DNA of 25,598 nucleotides from a virus (lineage: Duplodnaviria; Heunggongvirae; Uroviricota; Caudoviricetes): IMG/VR virus record IMGVR_UViG_2778261153_000008; one strand, 5' to 3'. Numbering within the stretch: position 1 is the first letter of the stretch; the number at the start of each line of letters is the position of its first letter. The notes beneath the pieces are model-generated. The model was not told the origin of the DNA, ran no database searches, and was given only the letters and a program-made list of their open reading frames with translations. The translations under genes were made by a program, and so were the position numbers. Positions 1 through 14,271 of the stretch are shown in pieces.

Positions 1-1053
1 TTACGGGGTAATGCCAACCGCTGCCGCCACTTTGTCGCCACTTGGCAGCGTTGCCAGAGGATTGAAACGGAGCGCCGTTTCCAGATGATCCGGTGCCAGA
101 TGTGCGTAACGCATAGTCATTTTTATATCGTGGTGTCCGAGAATTTTTTGTAAGGCCAGAATGTTTCCACCCGACATCATGAAGTGCGCCGCAAACGTAT
201 GGCGCAGAACGTGTGTGAGTTGACCGCGAGGGAGCACGATAGACGTTTTTTCCATCACGGATAAAAATTGAAAATAGCAGTCTGTGAAGAAATTGAACCC
301 ATCAAGCGCCATGATCTCTTCGTAAAGCTCTTTACTGATAGGGATGCTTCTGTTTTTCTTCCCCTTCGTTCTGACAAAGGTAATTCGGTATTTGGTCACC
401 TGTGAGCGAGTAAGATTTACGGCTTCACGCCAGCGTGCGCCTGTGCTTAAGCATATCTTAACTACCAGTGCCAGAATTGGGTCCTGACGTTTGCAATCAG
501 CCAGCAATTCAACAATCTGCTCATGGGTAAGCCATGCCATCTCTTTTTCTGCGATGGTGAATTTTCGCATGTTCTCCAGTGGGTTCGGATACGACCATTC
601 GCCCAGACGGGATAGTTCGCTAAAAACACTACTTAGATAGCTTTGCTCCAGGTTAATGGTGACCGGGCTTGCTCCTTTCTTCCATTTCTCGCTGAAGTAG
701 ATCTCGCCTGTCAGGCGTTTATCTCGATAGTGGGCAAACATTTTAGAGGTGAGATCGGTTGCAAGAGGATTGCCCAGAGCGTCAACCATCAACAGCAATT
801 TGTCATAGACATGCTGCCCAGCTGTCAGAGATTTACCATGTAGTTTGAACCATAGTTCAACCACGTCTTTCAGTGTTCGACGATCCACTGATTCACCCAG
901 CCAGGGCTTTGCTTCGGTTTCTTCCATCGTGTGACGCTCAAAAGCCAGAGCTTCGCCTTTGGTGGCGAATTGTTTACGCACACGACGTCCACTACGTCCG
1001 GCGGGGTAACATTCGCAAAGCCATTTTCCTGTGGTGAGTTTTCGTACTGCCAT
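1..1053 (-). CDS. int: Phage integrase, tyrosine recombinase (P2/186 family)
   Basis: 350-aa ORF; C-terminal tyrosine-recombinase signature (LRHTFAAHF ... GHHDIKMTMRYAHL); sits at prophage end beside the immunity region; stop codon at window positions 1-3 so the gene appears complete. Confidence 0.9.
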   Translation of the reverse strand: MAVRKLTTGKWLCECYPAGRSGRRVRKQFATKGEALAFERHTMEETEAKPWLGESVDRRTLKDVVELWFKLHGKSLTAGQHVYDKLLLMVDALGNPLATDLTSKMFAHYRDKRLTGEIYFSEKWKKGASPVTINLEQSYLSSVFSELSRLGEWSYPNPLENMRKFTIAEKEMAWLTHEQIVELLADCKRQDPILALVVKICLSTGARWREAVNLTRSQVTKYRITFVRTKGKKNRSIPISKELYEEIMALDGFNFFTDCYFQFLSVMEKTSIVLPRGQLTHVLRHTFAAHFMMSGGNILALQKILGHHDIKMTMRYAHLAPDHLETALRFNPLATLPSGDKVAAAVGITP

Positions 1054-1136: not shown

Positions 1137-2813
1137 CTAAGCAACATGCAGTTCATCGTTGGCGGAAGTTGCTGCTTTGCGCTCTTGCTCAATCGCCAGT
1201 GACTCTCTATATTCTTTCGCTTCCGCAAACATTGTCCATTGTGCGTTGATGTTCATATCTTCAATAACAGACTTAATTTCTTTAATATTTACGTTGAAAA
1301 ACTCTTTTCGTGAGTTAATTTTATTGACCTGTTTTTCGTTGAAGACTTTATGCAGATGATTTTCTAATGATGGTGCATCATCACTATAAATCATCGCATG
1401 AACATCGAACGAAAAAGGAACACTAGCATCACCGAGTTCACGAACACGATCAAGTGGTTCAAGGCGGCGTGTCATTCCAATTTTATATACATCTTCGCCA
1501 AATGAGCCAATATTACTAATTATATAAACGTGGCCTGATCTAGTTTGTTGAGCCATAGAAATAGCTCGTTGGTTTTTAGCTTCAGCTTCTTCATATTTTA
1601 ACTGTAGTTCAGCTATTTTTTGCTCTAAAGCTAAGCGTTGTTCTTCATTTGCAAGCATAAGCTCTTTTGTTGCTTTATTTATAGCTTGCTGAATAGCTTT
1701 CTCTTCTTTTTCAGCTTCTTTTATCGCTTTTTCATACTCCCTACGAGCTCTTTCCTCTTCACGAAGTTGTTCTTTAATCCTTCTTTGCTCTTCTTTTTCT
1801 TCGAGCATAATTTCATTAACTGCAACTCCCCATTTTAGCTCGTTGAGTCGAGCTTGAAGATAGATGTCACTTATTTTTGCGGACCTAAAGGCAGAACCAT
1901 TGTAATTTACAAGTTGAAACGCATCTTTTATCTCTTGGGAAAGTTTTCCAAAATTGTTGTGTTTGACTTTTGATAAAATACTGTCAACTCTTCCATTGAA
2001 GGCATCTAAAACAAAGTTGATAGCAGTATTACGCCTGTTTTGTTCGACATAATCACACGAAGCAGCTTTATTAGTTTTTATTAATGATTTTGTTAACTCC
2101 CTGGCTTTTTGTAATTCCTTACCTGCATCTGTAAACTCATAATTTTCTGCCAATTCATCGAGAACGCTACGGTTAGGGATGATCCATTCATCACCATAAC
2201 CTTCAATTTTATTTTTCATTGATTTGGCAACTGCTTCATATTTTTCTGCAAACTCTTTAGCTTCATATGCTGAACCAGCAATCTCTTTTGCTCTTTCTTC
2301 TGCATCGGAAATAATTTTCACTGCATTGTCATTAGCATTTGAGATCAGCTCATTTGCTTTACTATTGGCATTATCAAGACGTTCTTTAGCTTTCAGGCGT
2401 GCATCGCGAGCGTCTTTAGTAATTGCTATAGCTTCGCTATTAGCGTTGCTTATTTTTATCTGAGCTTGATAATTTGCTTCGTTTACTGTCTTAGCAGCCT
2501 TTATTTGGGCTTCTTCTATTTTTTGCCTGGCTATTGAGTCTGCATTTTTTATCTTATTCTCTGCTTCCATCACTGCGCTGTGCAATTCTACGTATTGCCA
2601 TAATGGCGCAGCTCGTCCTTCAAGCTCTGATAGATCTCGTACAGTCTGTGCTAATTCTTCTTGATTTTCTTTCAGTTGGTTGGAAAGGGCTATGTTGTTA
2701 GCTGTCAAGGTATTTATAGCCGCTTTATGTTTTTTGCTTTGCTTAAATAATATTACAGCTAGAATGGGGGCGAGAAATGCTAATAAGAATATAACGATGG
2801 AAAATGAATTCAT
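1137..2813 (-). CDS. Membrane-anchored coiled-coil protein with C-terminal T5orf172/MUG113 (GIY-YIG-like) nuclease domain; DUF4041-like architecture; cargo gene
   Basis: 558 aa. N-terminal hydrophobic helix (FSIVIFLLAFLAPILAVILF), long K/E/A-rich low-complexity middle region predicted coiled coil, C-terminal block GHVYIISNIGSFGEDVYKIGMTRRLEPLDRVRELGDASVPFSF...EFF matching the recalled T5orf172 consensus. Strongly AT-rich versus phage backbone. Start 20 nt downstream of cI stop, SD AAGGA; co-oriented with cI and int. Confidence 0.75.
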   Translation of the reverse strand: MNSFSIVIFLLAFLAPILAVILFKQSKKHKAAINTLTANNIALSNQLKENQEELAQTVRDLSELEGRAAPLWQYVELHSAVMEAENKIKNADSIARQKIEEAQIKAAKTVNEANYQAQIKISNANSEAIAITKDARDARLKAKERLDNANSKANELISNANDNAVKIISDAEERAKEIAGSAYEAKEFAEKYEAVAKSMKNKIEGYGDEWIIPNRSVLDELAENYEFTDAGKELQKARELTKSLIKTNKAASCDYVEQNRRNTAINFVLDAFNGRVDSILSKVKHNNFGKLSQEIKDAFQLVNYNGSAFRSAKISDIYLQARLNELKWGVAVNEIMLEEKEEQRRIKEQLREEERARREYEKAIKEAEKEEKAIQQAINKATKELMLANEEQRLALEQKIAELQLKYEEAEAKNQRAISMAQQTRSGHVYIISNIGSFGEDVYKIGMTRRLEPLDRVRELGDASVPFSFDVHAMIYSDDAPSLENHLHKVFNEKQVNKINSRKEFFNVNIKEIKSVIEDMNINAQWTMFAEAKEYRESLAIEQERKAATSANDELHVA

Positions 2814-2833: not shown

Positions 2834-3430
2834 TTAATTTGAAACTATTGTACTTCTTATACAAGCAACTACTTCAATATCAGAAAATGCACATTCAAAG
2901 CTATTCTCTGTACTTGTAATTTTAATCATACCTTTTGGAAGCTTTGTGATTTTTCGAATGGAATAGGTTCCGTCGATGTTGATTAACCAGTGCCCATCAA
3001 GTACTTCAGAAAATTTTTGATCACAAATGTATGTGACGAGCCCATCCTGAATAACAATTGGTGATGAAAGATTTGCAGGAAGAAATGATGAATCGAAGAC
3101 ATATGAACCATCTTCAATCATTTTGCCTGCGGTAAGGCGAAACTTGGCAAGCTCTTCTGTAGCTGCTGTCAGCGAGCTTTGCTTAAGGCCTTGCCCGGTG
3201 GTTAACCATTTCAGTGAGGTTCCTGTTTCAAGAGCACATTGGATTATCCAGTCTGCAGGAAACGTATCCCGCAAATACCTGTTCGCCAGAGTGCTTTTTG
3301 ATACTTCCAAGTGATCAGCTAAAGCCTGTCGTGTCGTAAAGCCATAAGCTTCGACTAATCGCTCAATCGCAGCCTTACCACCTTTATTGGGATTTATTTT
3401 GATCTCATTTGGGTACTTTGATGTTGACAT
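2834..3430 (-). CDS. cI: Immunity repressor, phage 186 CI-like
   Basis: 198-aa ORF divergent from apl/cII; N-terminal HTH-like region (AYGFTTRQALADHLEVSKSTLANRYLR); size and position match 186 CI (about 190 aa). Start codon overlaps the -35 of the rightward promoter. Confidence 0.8.
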   Translation of the reverse strand: MSTSKYPNEIKINPNKGGKAAIERLVEAYGFTTRQALADHLEVSKSTLANRYLRDTFPADWIIQCALETGTSLKWLTTGQGLKQSSLTAATEELAKFRLTAGKMIEDGSYVFDSSFLPANLSSPIVIQDGLVTYICDQKFSEVLDGHWLINIDGTYSIRKITKLPKGMIKITSTENSFECAFSDIEVVACIRSTIVSN

Positions 3431-4296: not shown

Positions 4297-4497
4297 ATGC
4301 TTACGAAAGAACCATCATTTGCATCGCTGCTGGTTAAACAAAGCCCGGCAATGCACTACGGTCACGGCTGGATCATGGGTGAGGATGGTAAACGCTGGCA
4401 TCCGTGCCGTTCACAAGATGAATTGCTGGCAGAACTATCTACGAAAAAACGGGGGAACAAATGGCTATTGAAGGCGCTGCGGCGACTGTTCCATTAA
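4297..4497 (+). CDS. Small early protein, hypothetical (possibly Fil-like)
   Basis: 66-aa product from ATG 4297 with SD GAGGTG (4288-4293); in 186 the gene after cII is fil, but I cannot verify similarity. Confidence 0.45.
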   Translation: MLTKEPSFASLLVKQSPAMHYGHGWIMGEDGKRWHPCRSQDELLAELSTKKRGNKWLLKALRRLFH

Positions 4498-4802
4498 GCC
4501 CCGGTGAACGCCTGAATGGACTTAATCATATTGCGGAGTTAAGGGCGAAAGTTTTTGGTCTTAATATTGAGTCAGAGCTTGAGCGGTTTATTAAAGATAT
4601 GCGTGATCCACGGGATATTAATAGCGAACAAAATAAACGGGCACTGGCTGCCATATTCTTTATGGCAAAAATTCCAGCTGAACGTCATAGCATCAGCATT
4701 AATGAGCTGACCACTGACGAAAAGCGGGAGTTGATTAAAGCAATGAATCATTTTCGTGCAGTGGTGAGCTTATTTCCCAGACGGTTAACCATGCCGAATT
4801 AA
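4461..4802 (+). CDS. Hypothetical early protein
   Basis: 113-aa ORF, SD GGGGGA 5 nt upstream of ATG 4461; overlaps the preceding ORF by 37 nt; embedded in the early operon. Confidence 0.5.
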   Translation: MAIEGAAATVPLSPGERLNGLNHIAELRAKVFGLNIESELERFIKDMRDPRDINSEQNKRALAAIFFMAKIPAERHSISINELTTDEKRELIKAMNHFRAVVSLFPRRLTMPN

Positions 4803-4869
4803 CCAACTAATGAAATTAATGGCGTAAACCCGCCGGGCATCCCTTTATCTAAATTCAGGAGAATTGATT

Positions 4870-5103
4870 ATGCGTAATATTGAAACCCTCACGACTAAAA
4901 CCGGACCGGATGACGCAGGGCTTAATATTTTACTGACAGAGGCTCGTCTGGAAGAACGCCGGGCAAGGGCTGAAGCAATGGCAGCTCGCCTTGATAGTCT
5001 GGCGTGTCATATTACATCCCGCCAGCTAAACCACGTCGAAGCGGCAGAACTGCTGCGTGTGACTGCTGAAGCAATCCAGAACGAAGCGCAGGAGATCCAC
5101 TAA
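4870..5103 (+). CDS. Hypothetical early protein
   Basis: ATG 4870 with SD AGGAG (4857-4861); 77 aa, charged/helical; stop overlaps the next gene start (TAATG). Confidence 0.5.
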   Translation: MRNIETLTTKTGPDDAGLNILLTEARLEERRARAEAMAARLDSLACHITSRQLNHVEAAELLRVTAEAIQNEAQEIH

Positions 5104-5330
5104 TGGCTGATGCAATGGATCTCGTACAGCAGCGCGTTGAAGAAGAACGCCAGCGCCATATCCGTGCTGCCCGTGCCAAAACACCGGGCGTGTCACGCGT
5201 ACTTTGCATTGAATGTGAAGCGCCAATTCCGCCAGCACGACGCCGCGCCATTCCGGGAGTGCAGCTTTGCATTACCTGTCAGGAAATCGCAGAACTGAAA
5301 GGCAAACATTACAACGGAGGTGCTGTATGA
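5103..5330 (+). CDS. TraR/DksA-family C4 zinc-finger protein
   Basis: 75 aa with CxxC-(17)-CxxC pattern (CIECEAP...CITCQE), typical of small phage TraR/DksA-like zinc fingers; translationally coupled to flanking genes. Confidence 0.7.
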   Translation: MADAMDLVQQRVEEERQRHIRAARAKTPGVSRVLCIECEAPIPPARRRAIPGVQLCITCQEIAELKGKHYNGGAV

Positions 5331-6175
5331 GCACCATCTTGAAATGGGCGGGAAATAAAACGGCCATTATGGCAGAACTGAAAAAATACCTTCCTGCTGG
5401 CCCGCGACTGGTTGAACCTTTCGCGGGTTCCTGTGCAGTGATGATGGAGACGGATTACCCCAGCTATCTTGTTGCGGATATTAATCCTGATTTAATCAAC
5501 CTCTATAAAAAGGTTGCCGCTGATTGTGAATCGTTTATATCTCGCGCCAGAGTTTTATTTGAGAACGCAAACAGGGAGATGGCTTATTACAACATAAGGC
5601 AGGAGTTTAATTACTCAACTGAAATTACTGATTTCATGAAAGCAGTATATTTCCTGTATCTCAATCGTCACGGTTACCGTGGTTTATGTCGCTATAACAA
5701 GAGCGGGCATTTCAACATTCCCTACGGTAATTATAAAAATCCGTATTTCCCTGAAAAAGAAATTCGTGCATTTGCAGAAAAAGCCCAGCGGGCAACATTT
5801 ATCTGCGCCAGCTTCGATGAAACGCTGGCAATGTTGCACGCGGGGGATGTTGTGTATTGCGATCCGCCTTATGACGGTACGTTTTCCGGTTATCACACTG
5901 ACGGCTTCACTGAAGATGACCAGTATCACCTGGCATCCGTTCTTGAACATCGGTCATCAGAAGGACATCCGGTCATTGTTTCTAACAGTGACACATCCCT
6001 GATCCGCTCGCTGTATCGCAATTTCACTCACCACTACATCAAGGCAAAACGCAGCATTGGCGTGTCAGCTGGCGAGAGTAAATCTGCAACAGAAATCATT
6101 GCCACCAAATCAGCTGGGTGGTTTGGTGTCGATTTTGCCAGCGGCTCTGACCGTACCGTTGAGGTACGCGCATGA
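5327..6175 (+). CDS. dam: DNA adenine methyltransferase (Dam-like, N6-adenine MTase)
   Basis: ATG 5327 (overlaps preceding stop as ATGA); N-terminal AdoMet motif (KWAGNK ... EPFAGSCAV) and catalytic DPPY motif ([11 protein letters not shown]). Confidence 0.85.
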
Positions 6176-7182
6176 ATGCTATCGATCCGCGTTGCTTTGC
6201 CTCAGGCACCATTAACGTCATCACTACTTCTGGTGGCAAAGATAGTCTCGCTCAATGGCTAAGAGCCATTGAAAACGATGTTCCGCATATTTCTGTATTT
6301 GCCGATACGGGTCATGAACATCCACAGACAATAGAATATCTGGATTATCTGGAATCAAAGCTGGGCAAGATTATTCGCGTCAAAGCGGATTTCACACGCC
6401 AGATAGAAGGGAAACGTAAATTCATTGCGGAAAAGTGGACCATTTCTCTCGTTGAGGAATGTGGTATGTCGACAGATGAGGCTGAGGAACGTATTTACCG
6501 GGCACTGGAAATCCTTAAACCAACCGGCGTTCCGTTTCTTGATTTGTGCATGTGGAAAGGTCGCTTCCCTTCAACAAAAGCTCGTTTCTGCACTTTTGAA
6601 CTGAAACATGAACCAATACGTACACAGGTAATCGATCCAGCTCTGGATGAATACGATGAGGTAATCAGTTGGCAAGGAGTCCGGGGGCAGGAATCACCGG
6701 AACGTGCATTGTTGCCTGAGTGGGAGGACGATGCAGACAATACTCTGGGGCTGCATGTTTATCGTCCGATCCTTAATTGGCTGCATGAGGATGTGTTTGC
6801 TATTGCCAAACGTCATGGCATTAAGCCTAACCCCCTTTATATGCAGGGATGCAGTCGTGTCGGTTGTATGCCATGCATTCATGCTCGCAAGTCAGAACTT
6901 GGAGAGATTTTCCAACGCTGGCCAGAAGAAATCCGCCGAGTGGCTGAGTGGGAAAGACTGGTTGCGGAATGTTCAAGACGTGGCAATTCAACGTTCTTTC
7001 CATCCACGCATGATCCGCGCCGTGCTGAAAAACGGATCGAAGTCATAACTGTTGATGCTTATGGCATTGAAACTTATCGGGACTGGGCCTTAACGACTCG
7101 GGGCGGTATGCAGTTTGACCTGCTGGCAGGCATGAATGATAAAGCGGTGTGCAGCAGTGTATATGCAGGAGTCTGTGAGTGA
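6172..7182 (+). CDS. PP-loop ATP pyrophosphatase, phosphoadenosine-phosphosulfate (PAPS) reductase-like family protein
   Basis: 336 aa; PP-loop motif SGGKDS near N-terminus; C-terminal cysteine cluster (CSRVGCMPC); start overlaps dam stop (ATGA), stop overlaps gene A start. Confidence 0.65.
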
Positions 7183-9620
7183 CAGAGATCAGCACAGGCC
7201 GTCTTGCCGATCCATTTGTCAGTGTAACTTCCGGTAGCATTGAGAATTCTGCCGGGGGTTATTCGTGGAATTTACCTAAGAAAGCCATTAACCCTTATCT
7301 GGACCCGGCGGAAGTTGCGCCGGTTTCTGCGCTTTCAAACCTGATCACTCTGTACGCTACCGATAACGAGCAGGAACAACTGCGCCGCGAGGCACTGAGT
7401 GATCAGGTCTGGGAGCGTTATTTCTTTAATGAATCCCGTGATCCTGTCCAGCGCGAAATGGAGCAGGATAAGCTCATTAGCCGGGCAAAGTTGGCGCATG
7501 AGCAGCAGCGTTTTAACCCGGACATGGTCATTCTGGCAGACGTCAGCGCCCAGCCCTCCCATATCAGCAAGCCGCTGATGCAACGTATTGAATACTTCAG
7601 CAGCCTGGGCAGGCCAAAGGCTTATTCCCGCTATTTACGTGAGACGATTAAGCCATGTCTGGAACGACTGGAGCATGTACGCGACAGCCAGCTATCTGCA
7701 TCTTTTCGTTTTATGGCAAGCCATGTAGGGCTGGACGACCTGCTGATTCTGCCTGAAATGAGTCAGGATCAGGTGAAACGCCTGTCTACCCTTGTCGCTG
7801 CGCATATGAGCATGTGCCTTGATGCAGCTTGTGGTGATTTGTATGCCACCGATGACGTTAAGCCAGAAGAAATCCGCAAGACATGGGAAAAGGTGGCAGC
7901 GGAAACCCTGCGTCTGGATGTCATCCCGCCTGCGTTTGAGCAACTCCGCCGGAAAAGAAACCGCCGTAAACCCGTGCCCTATGAACTCATTCCGGGTTCG
8001 CTGGCGCGTATGTTGTGCGCCGACTGGTGGTACCGGAAATTATGGAAGATGCGTTGCGAATGGCGGGAAGAGCAGTTGCGTGCTGTCTGCCTGGTCAGCA
8101 AAAAAGCATCTCCCTATGTCAGCTATGAAGCCGTGATGCATAAACGTGAGCAGCGCCGTAAGTCGCTGGAGTTTTTTCGTTCTCATGAACTGGTGAACGA
8201 AGACGGCGACACGCTGGACATGGAGGATGTGGTAAACGCCAGCAGCAGCAACCCTGCGCATCGCCGCAATGAGATGATGGCCTGTGTTAAAGGCCTGGAG
8301 CTTATCGCGGAAATGCGTGGTGACTGCGCCGTTTTCTACACCATTACCTGTCCGTCACGTTTCCATTCCACGCTCAATAACGGCAGACCAAACCCAACCT
8401 GGACAAATGCGACGGTAAGACAAAGCAGCGATTATCTGGTCGGCATGTTTGCTGCATTTCGTAAGGCGATGCACAAAGCCGGGTTGCGCTGGTATGGCGT
8501 GCGGGTGGCTGAGCCGCATCATGACGGTACGGTTCACTGGCACCTGTTGTGTTTCATGCGCAAAAAAGACCGCCGTGCCATTACTGCATTGTTGCGTAAG
8601 TTTGCCATCCGTGAAGACCGCGAGGAACTGGGTAATAACACTGGTCCACGCTTTAAATCTGAGCTGATAAACCCGCGCAAAGGAACACCGACAAGCTACA
8701 TCGCGAAATACATTAGTAAGAACATTGACGGGCGTGGTCTGGCTGGCGAGATCAGCAAGGAAACGGGTAAATCCCTGCGTGATAACGCTGAATACGTTAA
8801 TGCCTGGGCGTCTCTGCATCGTGTTCAGCAATTCCGCTTCTTTGGTATTCCGGGGCGTCAGGCTTACCGTGAACTGCGATTGCTGGCTGGTCAGGCGGCA
8901 AGGCAACAGGGCGACAAAAAAGCAGGTGCGCCGGTACTGGATAACCCGCGCCTTGATGCCATCCTGGCTGCTGCTGATGCTGGTTGTTTTGCCACTTACA
9001 TCATGAAGCAGGGTGGTGTACTGGTTCCCCGCAAATATCACCTCATCAGAACTGCTTATGAAATTAACGAAGAGCCGACCGCCTATGGCGATCACGGCAT
9101 TCGTATTTATGGCATCTGGTCACCCATTGCAGAGGGCAAGATCTGCACTCATGCAGTGAAGTGGAAAATGGTTCGTAAAGCCGTTGACGTTCAGGAGGCG
9201 GTAGCCGACCAGGGCGCTTGCGCCCCTTGGACTCGTGGCAATAACTGTCCCCTTGCTGAAAATTTGAACCAACAGGAGAAAGATAAATCAGCTGATGGGG
9301 ACCCCAGAACGGACATTACCCGCATGGATGACAAGGTGTTGCACGATTACCTGCACAGTATGAACAAAAAGGAGCGCCGGGAACTGGCTGCAAGGTTACG
9401 TCTGGTGAAACCGAAACGGCGTAGAGACTACAAACAGCGAATTACAGACCATCAACGACAGCATCTCGTCTATGAACTGAAATCCAGAGGATTTGATGGC
9501 AGCGAGAAAGAGGTCGATTTACTCCTTCGCGGCGGCAGTATTCCGTCAGGAGCAGGCCTGCGTATCTTCTATCGGAACCAGCGTTTGCAGGAAGATGATA
9601 AGTGGCGGAACCTGTATTAA
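7179..9620 (+). CDS. A: Replication initiation protein (P2 gpA-like rolling-circle endonuclease)
   Basis: 813 aa, GTG start with SD AGGAG (7167-7171); HUH-type motif ([12 protein letters not shown]) and downstream tyrosine motif ([10 protein letters not shown]); large early gene in the position of P2 gene A. Confidence 0.85.
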
Positions 9621-9773: not shown

Positions 9774-9962
9774 ATGCAGGACTATTTTTTGGAGTCTTTG
9801 AAGCTCCAGCGCATTGATTTTTTTCTTAAGCTTGTAGCGGCTAGTGAGTGTAGTGATGAAGAGAAGGGGCTGGCTTTGCAGTGGGTTTCTGAACTGACTG
9901 ATGAACTCATGGCAAAAATCAGAAGCCACGAATACAACCGCTCAATGGATGTCATCAGCTGA
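9774..9962 (+). CDS. Small SOS-operon protein, hypothetical (possibly N-terminal part of a Tum-like antirepressor)
   Basis: 62-aa ORF with strong SD (AGGAGG) 5 nt upstream; first gene after the LexA box; overlaps the upstream open frame of the DinI-like gene. Confidence 0.5.
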   Translation: MQDYFLESLKLQRIDFFLKLVAASECSDEEKGLALQWVSELTDELMAKIRSHEYNRSMDVIS

Positions 9963-9972
9963 GGTGACTTTT

Positions 9973-10206
9973 ATGCGCATTGAAATAATGATCGATAAAG
10001 AGCAGAAGATTAGCCAGTCTACCCTGGACGCCCTTGAATCCGAGCTTTACCGCAATCTGCGCCCCCTGTATCCCAAAACGGTAATCCGTATCCGTAAAGG
10101 TAGCTCTAACGGTGTGGAACTGACCGGACTGCAACTGGACGAAGAAAGAAAACAAGTGATGAAAATTATGCAGAAGGTGTGGGAAGACGACAGCTGGCTG
10201 CATTGA
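9973..10206 (+). CDS. DinI-like protein (Tum C-terminal-like, SOS-inducible)
   Basis: 77-aa product MRIEIMIDKEQ...KVWEDDSWLH resembles E. coli DinI in length and in N-terminal MRIE and C-terminal W-x-DD-W motifs; SD GAGGTG 6 nt upstream; downstream of LexA box. Confidence 0.7.
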   Translation: MRIEIMIDKEQKISQSTLDALESELYRNLRPLYPKTVIRIRKGSSNGVELTGLQLDEERKQVMKIMQKVWEDDSWLH

Positions 10207-10260: not shown

Positions 10261-10293
10261 AGGCGATGTCAATCAGATATCGCCTTGTTTTTT
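10261..10293 (+). terminator. Intrinsic terminator/attenuator-like hairpin
   Basis: A-GGCGAT (10261-10267) pairs with ATCGCC-T (10279-10285), 11-nt loop, followed by TTGTTTTTTG; lies after the DinI-like gene and 27 nt before the lipoprotein start. Confidence 0.45.
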
Positions 10294-10319
10294 GTCAAGA
10301 AAAGAATAATAGGCTAAAA

Positions 10320-10997
10320 ATGAAAATTAATAATGTAGCGTTACCAATATCTCTTGCTGTAATCCTAACTGGTTGCGTGCCACATGCTTCTAACCGAAAT
10401 ATCACTGCTATTGAAGTGGTGAAGCCTGCTATTGGGCAAAGTGCTACCGCCTACATGGGCGATCCCATTATCACATCTGCTACTGGATTTAAAACGGACG
10501 TACTAGAACTTGGTGCGGCTAATGGTGCATTGTCTTCTATCGCTGCTGGTACATATTGCAGTGAGGGGAATGGAATTTACCGCAATTATCATAACCCTCA
10601 AGCTGTTGCGTTAAAAAATCTCTATGGGCAAATCGGTAACTATGTTGATTATGTTAGTTACGATGCTGCAAAAAATGAGATATCACCGCCAAATGGTACT
10701 TCTTATACTGCATCAGAAATTTCTATCAAACGTGTTCCTGATGGGCTGTGTCGAGTTAGTAACTCATTGGTTAAGACTATCGAATACAATGGAAATGCAG
10801 GCGGTGTAATGAAGTTCACCTATCGTGAATTTGCAAACGATATGGCTCGTGCAGCATTTACAACAGATTTTTCTGTAGATTCTAAGGGAAGTGACGTTAT
10901 CGCTTACAAAGGTGCCAAGTTCAAAGTGAACAAGGCTGATAACTCGTCTATTTCTTATACAATTATTTCTGGCTTTGACAAGGCTGTCACGTTCTAG
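10320..10997 (+). CDS. Lipoprotein, function unknown (cargo/moron)
   Basis: Product begins MKINNVALPISLAVILTGC: basic N-terminus, hydrophobic core, lipobox LTGC. Remainder Gly/Ser/Asn/Tyr-rich beta-type sequence. AT-rich relative to backbone. The ORF-track start at 10266 would add 18 non-signal residues and overlaps the hairpin. Confidence 0.7.
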   Translation: MKINNVALPISLAVILTGCVPHASNRNITAIEVVKPAIGQSATAYMGDPIITSATGFKTDVLELGAANGALSSIAAGTYCSEGNGIYRNYHNPQAVALKNLYGQIGNYVDYVSYDAAKNEISPPNGTSYTASEISIKRVPDGLCRVSNSLVKTIEYNGNAGGVMKFTYREFANDMARAAFTTDFSVDSKGSDVIAYKGAKFKVNKADNSSISYTIISGFDKAVTF

Positions 10998-11170: not shown

Positions 11171-11189
11171 GGCGTGGCGGGGATACGAG
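11171..11189. other. Putative cohesive end site (cos) of the P2/186-like genome
   Basis: GGCGTGGCGGGGATACGAG; the first 13 nt match my recollection of the 19-nt cohesive ends of 186 (GGCGTGGCGGGGAAAGCAT) and P2 (GGCGAGGCGGGGAAAGCAC). Lies between the genome-right-end genes and the portal/terminase genes as expected. Confidence 0.5.
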
Positions 11190-11483
11190 CGCGCATTTAT
11201 ATAGAGTTAGAGAAATTTCTCTATGCTGCATGTCATAGTCATATTTGCTGATGCAAATGAAGGTTACAACTAAGGAGAACAACATAATTACCGTAAATAT
11301 AATTTACAATCGTTATTGTTTTGTAGGGTTATGAGATTGACGCATTATATTGAGATCAAGTTCAAAATTATATGTCAATTCATCAATTTTGACGTTTCTT
11401 TCGTTAAATAAATCGCATATCCTATCGTTATGATAAATCGGTCATGATATTTTTTAATTTAACGGAAGTAATCGGAGATTCTA

Positions 11484-13202
11484 ATGCATCCTGTTTTAAA
11501 CAGATATATTCAAGATTTAGCGAGTACACTTGATATAGCAGAAGAGCAAGATAAGTTATTTGAATATTTTTGCAATTTTGTTGTTACATCCAAAAATTAT
11601 CTTGGCCGATTTAATCCTGTCGACATTACGACTCAAGAAGATGATGCATCAATTGATGGCTTGGCGGTTCTAATAGATAGTGAGATCATACTTACCCAAG
11701 AGGACGCTATTGCTGCTTTCGAAAGTCACAAATCGTCATTGCCTGTAGAACTTTTGGTTATTCAAGCTAAATCAGGAGAAACCTTCCGGAAAGATAAAAT
11801 AGCTAATTTTAATTTGGGGTTGCAGGATTTATTCAGTTTGGACCCGAAACTACCTAATGGAAAGTACAATAAAGAAATTATAAAAATATTAAGTGTTATC
11901 ATCGATAATTTGAGAAAAGTCAAGAATAAACTTCCTGATATAAAGGTTTATTTTTGCACAAGCGGTGTCTATTCAAAAGAAAGAGAAATAGAAGCTTCTT
12001 TTAAGATTATTGAAGAAACTTGTAAAGGGGCAGATCTGTTTGGTGAAGTTGAGGTTAGCCCATTAGGTCGTAGCGAACTAATGAAATTGTGGCGCTCAAT
12101 AACCGAAAAAAATGAGGCTACTTTAGAGTTCATAAATTTCATGGGCATCAATGAAATGCCTGGAATTCCTCAAGCATATATTACAACAATAAAAGCTAAG
12201 GAGTTTATTGAAAAAGTTGCGATGGATGAAGATCGCAAAATTCGAGAGGAGGTATTTGATGAAAATGTACGAGCATTTTTAGGTGAAGACAATCCTGTTA
12301 ATAAGGATATTACTAAAACCTTGCAATCTGAAAAATCGAATCAATTCGCTGTGCTAAACAATGGCGTGACCATCATTGCTCCTGAGGTAACCCTCACCCC
12401 AAGTAAAAAAACTATACACATAGCTAATTATCAGATCATTAACGGTTGCCAAACTACCAATACACTATTCAATAACTTTGGAATATTAACGGATGCGACT
12501 GAACTCGTTGTTAAGTTTATACAATCTAGCGAGGTTGATGTCGCAATTGACATTGTAACTGCTACCAATAATCAATCCAAAGTGGAGAGTTCTAGCTTTT
12601 ATGCGTTGAGAGAAAAGTCTAGGATGATACATAAATTTTTTGAAATACAACGGGATGTTGAAGGCAGGGAACACCTTTATTTTGAAAGAAGAGAAGGTGA
12701 GTATCGTGGTAAATCTATCAAAACTACAAAAATATATGACATTGTTGAATTGGCAAGGTGTTTCTTATCTGTATTCAAACAGAGGCCACACAATGCCGCT
12801 ATGTATGTGAAAAAAGTATTAAATGAAAGTAAGGATATATGTTATTTAGATACTGATAACGAATATGCATATTACACAGCAGCTTATATTTGTTATAAAT
12901 ACAGCACGTTGATTAATGGTCGTAAAGCTAATGCTAAGAAATATAATAAGCTACGTTGGCATATTGCTATGCTTTATCCTTGGGTTGTGAGCAAAAGTAT
13001 GGATGTTCCTGCGCCCAATTCAGGAAAGATAACTCCTTTTTGTAATAATATCATGAAAACATTGACAACTGATGAATACGTGGAGAATTTCAAAGAATGT
13101 CAAAAAATAATTGATAAACTTCCATTCCCTACAGATGACCAGATCAAACGAGGAAAATACACCAGCGATCTGAGAACGATGGCAGCAGAACATTTTAAAT
13201 AA
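11484..13202 (+). CDS. Hypothetical 572-aa protein; candidate single-gene anti-phage defence/abortive-infection protein (family unverified, possibly AIPR-like)
   Basis: Long uninterrupted ORF with SD GGAG 6 nt before ATG; very AT-rich compared with flanking packaging genes; own AT-rich upstream region; followed by strong hairpin terminator. No Walker A motif; conserved-looking block ANYQIINGCQTTNT; located between cos and portal gene. Confidence 0.6.
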   Translation: MHPVLNRYIQDLASTLDIAEEQDKLFEYFCNFVVTSKNYLGRFNPVDITTQEDDASIDGLAVLIDSEIILTQEDAIAAFESHKSSLPVELLVIQAKSGETFRKDKIANFNLGLQDLFSLDPKLPNGKYNKEIIKILSVIIDNLRKVKNKLPDIKVYFCTSGVYSKEREIEASFKIIEETCKGADLFGEVEVSPLGRSELMKLWRSITEKNEATLEFINFMGINEMPGIPQAYITTIKAKEFIEKVAMDEDRKIREEVFDENVRAFLGEDNPVNKDITKTLQSEKSNQFAVLNNGVTIIAPEVTLTPSKKTIHIANYQIINGCQTTNTLFNNFGILTDATELVVKFIQSSEVDVAIDIVTATNNQSKVESSSFYALREKSRMIHKFFEIQRDVEGREHLYFERREGEYRGKSIKTTKIYDIVELARCFLSVFKQRPHNAAMYVKKVLNESKDICYLDTDNEYAYYTAAYICYKYSTLINGRKANAKKYNKLRWHIAMLYPWVVSKSMDVPAPNSGKITPFCNNIMKTLTTDEYVENFKECQKIIDKLPFPTDDQIKRGKYTSDLRTMAAEHFK

Positions 13203-13210
13203 TATATACA

Positions 13211-13231
13211 GCCTCTCAAGGTTTGAGAGGC
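13211..13231. terminator. Bidirectional rho-independent terminator between convergent genes
   Basis: GCCTCTCAA-ggt-TTGAGAGGC perfect 9-bp stem, T/A-rich flanks on both sides (ATTGTTATTT on plus; TGTATATATT on minus); lies between the 572-aa gene stop and the Q stop. Confidence 0.8.
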
Positions 13232-13239
13232 ATTGTTAT

Positions 13240-14271
13240 TTAATCTAATATGTACTCGCTAAATTTTATTACTGATTCTCCTACAAATTCATTTAATCCT
13301 TTCACTCTTTCTTTAAGTGGGATGAGTTCGTTACGTACAAATACTTTACTGGCCTTCTCAATATCACCAAAACCGCCAACATTTTGCGGGATGATACCCA
13401 TGAGTTGTGGCGGCACGCGGTGCGCAGCCATCATGTCGTCACGGCTCACGTTTTTGATATTCAGAAACTCATCCTTCGCTGCGACTTCTGACAACGGGAT
13501 AATCTGAAGCCCGTCCTTTTTGCCGTTCGGCGAGTACATAAACAGGTTACGGAAGTTGCCTGGTCCTTTGGCGCTTTTCATTGCGTTGCGGAGGTTGTTT
13601 ACATCCTCCTGGTTCTGTGCGGCATCGGTCATGTACATGATGAAGCCTGCATGACTACCGTTAATGTAATACTTGCGGCGGAACAGCGTGGCGGATTCGT
13701 TGAGCAGGGCTGACGGAATGGCAGAAAGATAACCGGGCAGGCCGTAGATCTCCTGGTTGATGTCCGGTTCCATCAGATGAAAGATGCTGCCTTTCGTGAA
13801 CTGATACGGCTGGGTTGTCATACCGTATTGCACAAACCAGTAGGTATCTAGGTCTAACCCGCGTCGGGTGTATTTTGCCAGCGCAGGCTCAAGGGCGATA
13901 ACTTCACCGAATCGGTTCGTGCGTTTCTCCAGGTAGGCGTTACCAAATACCAGATAGTCCTGCACAAAACGCGAAAAAGCCTGCTGGCTGAGCAGCGGGT
14001 GAGGGATGTAGGTACTGGTCAGAATATTGCATTTCACCGCAATCGGTGAGCTGTGATGCACGGCGGCGCGAAAGGTGCGCGCCAGCCCGTCAAAACTCAC
14101 TGGCGGCTCATACCATCGATCTGTCTGTACGCATTCCACATAGTCCAGCAGTTCACGGCGGTCCAGAACAGGAACGGGATCGCCGAAGCTGAATGCTTCG
14201 GCTGAAGTCTGGCTTTTATGCTGGATCTGATTCATCGCAGCTACGCGGTTTTTTTTACTCTTTCCCATCAA
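13240..14271 (-). CDS. Q: Portal protein (P2 gpQ-like)
   Basis: 343 aa (P2 Q is about 344 aa); leftward gene immediately preceding the large terminase subunit, as in P2; 4-nt overlap with P. Confidence 0.85.
   Translation of the reverse strand: MMGKSKKNRVAAMNQIQHKSQTSAEAFSFGDPVPVLDRRELLDYVECVQTDRWYEPPVSFDGLARTFRAAVHHSSPIAVKCNILTSTYIPHPLLSQQAFSRFVQDYLVFGNAYLEKRTNRFGEVIALEPALAKYTRRGLDLDTYWFVQYGMTTQPYQFTKGSIFHLMEPDINQEIYGLPGYLSAIPSALLNESATLFRRKYYINGSHAGFIMYMTDAAQNQEDVNNLRNAMKSAKGPGNFRNLFMYSPNGKKDGLQIIPLSEVAAKDEFLNIKNVSRDDMMAAHRVPPQLMGIIPQNVGGFGDIEKASKVFVRNELIPLKERVKGLNEFVGESVIKFSEYILD

Follow-up and report, generated by a model that had tools for sequence, protein, structure and literature searches.

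An anti-phage gene candidate was analysed within a viral DNA stretch of 25,598 nucleotides (nt) from the IMG/VR record IMGVR_UViG_2778261153_000008 (Caudoviricetes). This stretch, hereafter the window, is a P2-like (Fels-2/186-type) prophage. The gene, referred to below as the cargo gene, occupies positions 11484–13202 on the plus strand, between the cohesive-end site cos and the portal gene Q. It is real and well-delimited defence-type cargo, and its product, judged by profile and sequence comparison, is a recognized member of the known AbiU/AIPR family that is already correctly named in public databases. The features framing the gene and the parts predicted for its product are the following (E, expect value):

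7179–9620, plus strand: gene for the replication endonuclease gpA, which anchors the gpA–gpQ diversity hotspot on its conserved left side (Pfam Phage_GPA, E=1.5e-127)
11171–11189, plus strand: cos, 19-nt cohesive-end site (alignment with P2 and Fels-2)
11190–11483, strand not applicable: left boundary of the variable slot, with the AT-rich leader that precedes the cargo gene
11474–11477, plus strand: Shine-Dalgarno sequence GGAG (direct reading of the sequence)
11484–13202, plus strand: AbiU/AIPR-family gene, 572 amino acids (open reading frame, Pfam, PADLOC, NCBI name)
11484–12113, plus strand: N-terminal alpha/beta domain, residues ~1–210, predicted PD-(D/E)xK nuclease fold
12231–12683, plus strand: AIPR core, residues ~250–400, predicted ParB/sulfiredoxin-like fold
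12684–13199, plus strand: C-terminal all-helical domain, residues ~401–572 (secondary structure from AlphaFold2 (AF2), conservation)
13211–13231, both strands: bidirectional intrinsic terminator (terminator scan and folding)
13240–14271, minus strand: portal gene Q, right conserved hotspot anchor (Pfam Phage_portal)

A foreign gene between cos and Q

An earlier note, made by reading the sequence without database searches, had placed a putative cos site at 11171–11189. The 19-mer found there, GGCGTGGCGGGGATACGAG, is identical to the annotated cosL/cosR of P2 at 14 of 19 positions and is present unchanged in Fels-2; as the sequence on its left flank is also conserved with P2, the site can be taken as genuine. 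The distance from cos to the stop codon of Q is 2,050 base pairs (bp), compared with 167 bp in P2, which bears out the expectation of ~2 kb here versus immediate adjacency there. In P2, this interval holds only the tQ terminator, and tin and old are located on the gpA side of cos. When the window was aligned with the Klebsiella phages 4LV2017 and ST11-OXA48phi15.3, all three sequences were identical through cos and the following CGCGC and unrelated beyond. Homology to related phages thus stops ~6 bp past cos, near position 11196, and returns at the 3′ end of Q.

The reading frame at 11484–13202 starts with ATG and comprises 572 codons. The start codon is correctly assigned because the first two residues, M1-H2, line up with the N-termini of 55 homologs. 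A GGAG sequence (11474–11477) precedes the ATG by 6 nt, so that the gene has a Shine-Dalgarno sequence of its own, as had been supposed. Apart from the cargo gene, the cos–Q interval contains no non-overlapping open reading frame of at least 50 codons; one gene fills the space. Its GC content of 0.33–0.36, against 0.52–0.64 in the packaging and structural genes (roughly 0.34 versus 0.55), makes it far richer in AT than its neighbours. The GC contrast, the breaks in homology, and the variability of the slot (see below) together support the view of the earlier note that a single defence-type gene was acquired horizontally at the cos end of the genome.

The gene is followed by a hairpin (13211–13231) with a 9-bp, GC-rich stem and runs of T on both strands. 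The terminator scan detected it on either strand, and its folding energy of −17.8 kcal/mol (z = −4.5) agrees with the strong bidirectional terminator that had been proposed at this position. The terminator is common to the cargo gene and the convergent Q–P operon, and the tQ terminator of P2 occupies the equivalent position. To the right of the cargo gene follow Q, P, and then the structural genes.

The product is a member of the AbiU/AIPR family

A profile search against Pfam and PADLOC, a check that the earlier note had proposed, returned AIPR and AbiU. The Pfam model AIPR (PF10592) covers residues 258–499 (E=4.6e-40; 138.6 bits versus a cutoff of 25), and the PADLOC model AbiU (PDLC02357) matches from end to end (E=9.3e-107; residues 3–565 on model positions 4–532 of 537). 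The tentative assignment to the AIPR family, which the earlier note had left unconfirmed, was therefore right. All 56 homologs that were aligned, on which the conservation counts given below are based, match the AIPR model likewise.

Two other descriptions did not survive. The gene had been called an orphan, and the protein undescribed. A protein search among 5.8 billion sequences retrieved hundreds of full-length relatives of 573–620 residues and 45–77% identity. Their sources are Enterobacterales, Vibrio, Aeromonas, Shewanella, Burkholderia, cyanobacteria, and Bacteroidota, and the names given in source records were nearly always "AIPR family protein". Among the candidates scored, 379 matched at E<=1e-5, and the top 120 of these were all full-length with E<1e-179. 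Close variants occur in Enterobacter, and 125 contigs (295 index blocks) carry the identical protein, for example under the accession EFA3984503.1, "AIPR family protein [Escherichia coli]". The family is, furthermore, part of Pfam, NCBIfam, PADLOC, and DefenseFinder-type catalogues.

AbiU was reportedly first defined as a family in 2001, by Dai and colleagues, from the lactococcal AbiU of plasmid pND001. The lactococcal protein compared here is a 589-residue protein from the Lactococcus cremoris plasmid pC42, which reaches 590 bits against the AbiU model, aligns with residues 21–469 of the cargo protein, and shares every motif discussed below. Downstream of its gene on pC42, at the position of AbiUii, lies a gene for 341 amino acids (4447–5472); AbiUii has been characterized as HEPN, yet this gene gave no PADLOC match at E<=1e-3. 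Membership of the cargo protein in MzaE was considered and rejected, as the score of 49.1 bits falls short of the NCBIfam equivalog cutoff of 1050, and mzaA–D genes are missing, the neighbours being cos and Q.

Predicted architecture of the cargo protein

The protein is predicted to consist of three parts: an N-terminus with a PD-(D/E)xK fold, an AIPR core resembling ParB and sulfiredoxin, and a helical C-terminus. In the N-terminal domain, E27, D54, D58, D74, Q94, K96, and E168 are invariant in all 56 homologs. They include a D-x3-D-G ... Q-x-K pattern on consecutive strands (D54/D58 and Q94-A-K96 in the cargo protein), which is also kept in the Fels-2 and Lactococcus proteins; D...QxK is the form that the active site takes in Mrr and MspJI-type enzymes. 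The predicted structure of the domain shows the alpha/beta fold of restriction endonucleases. In a comparison with known folds, the PD-(D/E)xK set comprised MspJI (score 8.2), AF1548 (8.2), N.BspD6I (7.9), the small subunit of R.BspD6I (7.7), AspBHI (7.5), and the Mrr-like nuclease domains of LlaBIII and Avs4 (both 7.0), with HamA, NucC, Can2, and Card1 next. The invariant residues and the modelled fold suggest that the N-terminus is a PD-(D/E)xK nuclease domain of the FokI/MspJI/Mrr type, in line with the PD-(D/E)xK-like stretch that the earlier note had pointed out.

The core contains the invariant motifs F258-x-E-N-x-R263, N292-N-G-x-T296, N320-G-x-Q-T324, and T361-N-x-Q364. The third of these belongs to the INGCQTTNT block whose apparent conservation had been remarked upon; INGCQT is indeed invariant in 56 of 56 homologs, and the general form of the motif is (I/V)NGxQT. 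In the fold comparison, the ParB/sulfiredoxin set comprised a ParB-domain nuclease (5.3), the DUF262 enzyme BrxU (5.1), and PadC (5.0). From the predicted secondary structure, a strand-NGxQT-helix element would be placed where the ParB, Srx, DUF262, and DndB proteins have GERR, GCHR, DGQQR, and DGQHR, respectively. The phosphate-binding motif of the GxxR type is not preserved, as N320-G-C-Q-T324 carries an invariant threonine in place of the arginine. The only segments modelled with low confidence are the invariant loops 260–266 and 363–374, as might be expected of loops that depend on a ligand. A catalytic cysteine as in sulfiredoxin was rejected, since C322 is replaced by leucine or alanine in distant members.

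Residues 401–572 form a confidently modelled helical domain (AF2; predicted local distance difference test mostly 86–96), in which E401-R402, R425, and R491-W492 are invariant; fold searches gave no informative match for it. No Walker A motif (GxxxxGK[ST]) was found in any of the 56 homologs, and the GEYRGKS stretch of the cargo protein is not conserved. An OLD-type ATPase is thereby rejected, as the earlier note had already concluded from the missing P-loop.

The cos–Q slot is a published diversity hotspot

A diversity hotspot adjacent to cos, between gpA and gpQ of P2-like phages, was described by Rousset et al. 2022 (PMC9122126), who counted 1,650 arrangements across 18,150 E. coli loci; AIPR genes appear in their supplementary tables for the P2 as well as the P4 hotspot (PMC9122126). 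The insertion site of the cargo gene is this published hotspot, with AIPR genes already tabulated in it.

The gene content at the cos–Q junction of related prophages was compared as the earlier note had suggested. With the portal as the anchor, 80 IMG/VR loci with portals 91–94% identical were collected, 76 of which include cos. In these 76 relatives, the cos–Q gap ranges from 181 to 3,522 bp, and the slot holds 121 open reading frames of at least 80 codons, which fall into 66 protein clusters and 45 arrangements, a high turnover. By locus, the contents include ShosTA (six loci), PDC-M03 (five), and an NsnA-like protein (four), besides PDC-S59, IetAS, PDC-S49, and a type I-C retron reverse transcriptase-Toprim; AbiL-like, AriA-like, and PDC-M01 proteins also appear in the family counts. 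AbiU-type proteins are represented by three clusters at five loci. All 121 reading frames lie on the same strand, pointing from cos to Q and converging on the shared terminator. This strict polarity could reflect either the mechanism of insertion or a constraint from packaging or transcription. The point at which homology ends is equally constant in the relatives, always a few bases past cos (cos plus CGCGC).

Several named phages carry other cargo in the same slot. Phage 4LV2017 has a retron (St85-family effector and reverse transcriptase). ST11-OXA48phi15.3 and its kin have a different AIPR protein of 580 residues, annotated as "AIPR superfamily protein" in ST11-OXA48phi15.3, with 27% identity over 164 residues of the core only. 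Fels-2 STM2723.1 is a full-length homolog of 565 residues, 30% identical (AbiU, E=2.7e-112), and Salmonella phage RE2010 has an AIPR protein in the same P2-family slot and in the same orientation. Judged by this divergence, the AIPR genes of the slot look like independent acquisitions of different subfamilies.

Distribution of the allele

Presence of the gene, with backbone-like composition, in essentially all related phages, which would have spoken against acquired cargo, was not observed: the allele occurs in none of the 76 IMG/VR relatives, and megablast with the gene found it in none of the complete E. coli genomes of RefSeq (0 of 5,426), although 1,263 of them carry the P–Q backbone. A sensitive search detected an AIPR gene with 66% DNA identity in nine E. 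coli genomes. ECCWS199, the one genome inspected among the nine, again has it between cos and Q. The 125 contigs with the exact protein are mostly drafts of E. coli and Enterobacter and represent several prophage backgrounds, and the nearest matches to the backbone within the phage collection are Klebsiella phages. The allele is thus rare, and the backbone crosses genera. Outside this setting, relatives of the protein are encoded on Rep3/ParA plasmids (66% protein identity) and in a chromosomal neighbourhood that is not of phage origin (77%).

In L010 (GCA_946061555.1) and ECCWS199, the AIPR gene sits in a decayed prophage remnant with a truncated portal or terminase, and ogr is joined directly to the host gene ybjL. 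Such remnants suggest that AIPR cargo can outlive its phage.

Proposed function and alternative explanations

The cargo gene is very probably a single-gene anti-phage defence "moron" of the AbiU/AIPR family in the gpA–gpQ hotspot, which presumably shields the lysogen, and hence the prophage, from competing phages. The precedent is lactococcal: AbiUi alone confers resistance, causing lactococcal phages to plate 10- to 100-fold less efficiently and delaying phage transcription, and AbiUii is dispensable (PMC13064643). According to the same 2026 review, AbiUi as modelled by AF2 can be superposed on FokI (PMC13064643). AbiU1/AIPR proteins contain a domain of the ParB superfamily, which is often found fused to nucleases, PD-(D/E)xK among them (PMC3632139), and the N-terminal region of DndB was placed in the same ParB family (Makarova 2012, PMC3506569); DndB-like ParB folds bind ATP/GTP. 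A 2024 survey listed AbiU-1 among the single-gene PD-(D/E)XK systems and found AbiU enriched in myoviruses. A Vibrio AbiU was picked for experimental validation, and a phage-encoded inhibitor, Surt, was validated. The architecture proposed above is itself already in the literature.

By this reading, the predicted N-terminal nuclease would be the effector, and by analogy with DndB, GmrSD/BrxU, and SspE, it would be kept inactive by the ParB-like core and the C-terminal domain until infection is sensed. The core may act as a nucleotide- and/or DNA-binding switch, and the phage cue might be a nucleotide, DNA, or a protein. Once released, cleavage of nucleic acid would stall the incoming phage or its gene expression, an outcome compatible with the delay in phage transcription that lactococcal AbiU is reported to cause. 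More specifically, and only as a tentative proposal, the enterobacterial prophage clade may represent a self-contained, switch-gated nuclease, in which a degenerate nucleotide/DNA clamp of the ParB type (NGxQT for GxxR) would license an N-terminal D...QxK nuclease upon a specific phage cue. If true, its coupling of sensor and effector would differ from that of GmrSD/SspE and from that of every characterized Abi system.

A number of results weigh against the defence function or the mechanism proposed for it. A consensus scan of the plus strand between 11196 and 11483 revealed no convincing sigma-70 promoter. Pfam gave no match when residues 1–249 were scanned alone, and across all 56 homologs it detected no second domain family, DUF4365 appearing weakly in only two. 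A sequence search of the PDB, with the single sequence or with the profile, found no match; comparing the family profile with E. coli K-12 Mrr in hhalign, a weak test (single-sequence template, Neff 2.3), gave a probability of 0.3, and Foldseek returned nothing significant from the PDB. The nuclease and ParB assignments come from predicted structure, with no link at the level of sequence. Nucleoside triphosphate binding is uncertain because the arginine of GxxR is Thr324 in the cargo protein. The drop in efficiency of plating caused by lactococcal AbiU is only 10- to 100-fold (PMC13064643). Finally, the one AIPR gene that Rousset et al. cloned, pFR77 from the P4 hotspot, is outside their seven protective systems. 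Since pFR77 is only 25% identical to the cargo protein, and in the core only, this negative result does not transfer.

The principal alternative, possible but rather doubtful, is direct restriction of incoming (e.g., modified) phage DNA in the manner of Type IV enzymes, with survival of the host. It is modelled on GmrSD/BrxU/SspE, which combine a ParB-like DUF262 domain with a nuclease, and on MspJI/AspBHI with their D...QxK nuclease. However, the family is defined by an abortive phenotype, delayed transcription, and a weak reduction in plating; no domain reading DNA modification (SRA, winged helix) was detected in the cargo protein, and the gene stands alone, with neither a methylase partner nor any hint of self/non-self marking.

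Considerably less likely is that the gene is a selfish or inert passenger, that is, a toxin of the addiction type or an AT-rich gene that is silenced or decaying. AT-rich cargo is often silenced by H-NS, the leader yielded no promoter in the consensus scan, and pFR77 was inactive against the eight phages used by Rousset et al. However, the reading frame is intact, and the invariance of all family motifs across homologs of 45–77% identity indicates purifying selection. Moreover, exactly this protein persists on 125 contigs that represent several prophage backgrounds, the gene has a Shine-Dalgarno sequence and a dedicated terminator, and a Vibrio AbiU is the target of a phage-encoded inhibitor.

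Very little speaks for a HEPN-type RNase toxin. Its basis is the assignment of an N-terminal HEPN domain to AIPR proteins (Makarova 2012, PMC3506569) and the single R-x6-H string of the cargo protein, in which the earlier note had seen a weak HEPN-like stretch. That string is not conserved, R390 being asparagine in 34 and H397 in 30 of the 56 homologs; Pfam gives no HEPN match, and the N-terminal domain is predicted to be alpha/beta. With an unconserved motif and the wrong predicted fold, the HEPN reading was rejected, and the remark of Makarova 2012 does not apply to this clade; in Lactococcus, the HEPN domain belongs to the separate protein AbiUii (PMC13064643). It is just as improbable that the gene serves the phage itself, as a transcriptional regulator akin to DndB or as an accessory to packaging that acts at cos, for although it adjoins cos and the ParB-like fold is common to the DNA-binding regulators DndB and KorB, none of the 76 close relatives has it and P2 achieves packaging in its absence, its composition is foreign, and its homologs occur on plasmids and chromosomes without phage context.

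As a discovery, the defence gene carries little weight, as standard tools (Pfam, PADLOC, NCBI PGAP) name the protein, and the hotspot with its AIPR content was published in 2022. Its value lies rather in providing a compact native example of AbiU, with leader, gene, and terminator within 2 kb, from E. coli/Enterobacter, a tractable host for studying the mechanism. The census adds that cargo in this lineage is placed strictly on the Q side of cos, in one orientation throughout.

Other genes of the prophage

Beyond the slot, the following genes of the window were noted:

1–1053, minus strand: integrase (window gene list)
1137–2813, minus strand: AT-rich gene for 558 amino acids, PD-Lambda-1-type (PADLOC/Pfam)
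2834–3430: CI repressor, beyond the 558-residue gene in window order
5267–6175, plus strand: Dam-type D12 N6-adenine methyltransferase
6172–7182, plus strand: PAPS-reductase-domain protein, directly upstream of gpA
9901–10206: DinI (window gene list)
10266–10997, plus strand: lipoprotein-like open reading frame for 243 amino acids, on the gpA side of cos

The gene at 1137–2813, with a GC content of ~0.35, sits between the integrase and CI repressor genes. Its product matches PD-Lambda-1 of PADLOC (E=4.7e-120) and has the Pfam domains DUF4041 and T5orf172/MUG113. With this second defence gene in the int–cI interval, the prophage has two defence slots, int–cI and cos–Q. The PAPS-reductase-domain protein gave weak PADLOC matches of the SspD/DndC/BrxP kind; together with the methyltransferase, it is present in the relatives L008 and L009 and absent from L010 (GCA_946061555.1).

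The 243-residue reading frame at 10266–10997 (GC ~0.40) encodes a lipoprotein-like signal (…LAVILTGC…) and has no match in Pfam or PADLOC. It is kept at the same site in Fels-2 (STM2726) and in Klebsiella and E. coli relatives (as a gene call of 225 amino acids) and may be a lysogenic-conversion gene.

Comparison with known systems

The closest described system is lactococcal AbiU (AbiUi/AbiU1). The cargo protein is of the same length class (572 versus 589 residues of the pC42 protein) and agrees with it in how domains and motifs follow one another (D...D, QxK, NNGxT, NGxQT, NxQ), and as in the prototype, where a single protein suffices, the gene is a lone one. However, it is only ~23–26% identical to the Lactococcus AbiU-type protein, has no AbiUii (HEPN) neighbour, and resides in an enterobacterial P2-like prophage instead of a lactococcal plasmid.

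With GmrSD/BrxU/SspE and DndB, the cargo protein would share the coupling of a ParB/Srx-fold domain to a nuclease within one chain, consistent with the grouping of AbiU1/AIPR with COG1479/DUF262/DndB in the ParB superfamily (PMC3506569, PMC3632139). In contrast to GmrSD/BrxU/SspE, the order is reversed, with the nuclease at the N-terminus, and this nuclease is predicted to be PD-(D/E)xK rather than HNH/DUF1524. From both these enzymes and DndB it differs by the motif NGxQT in place of DGQQR/DGQHR, so that the arginine is missing; Pfam reports neither a DUF262 nor a DndB match. The nucleases FokI, MspJI, AspBHI, and Mrr have no detectable sequence similarity to the cargo protein and are joined to a DNA-recognition or SRA domain, a place that a ParB-like core would take here. 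MzaE of MADS/MZA has the AIPR core in common (residues ~253–408; PADLOC E=2.5e-10, NCBIfam E=3.2e-13).

The other AIPR proteins of the P2 slot (Fels-2, ST11-OXA48phi15.3, RE2010, ECCWS199) agree with the cargo protein in cos–Q position, orientation, and family but diverge strongly from it in sequence. The slot itself shares with the P2 hotspot of Rousset et al. the anchors (gpA, cos, and Q), the high turnover, and the break in homology just past cos. P2 carries its cargo, tin and old, on the gpA side of cos, whereas this lineage carries its variable cargo on the Q side.

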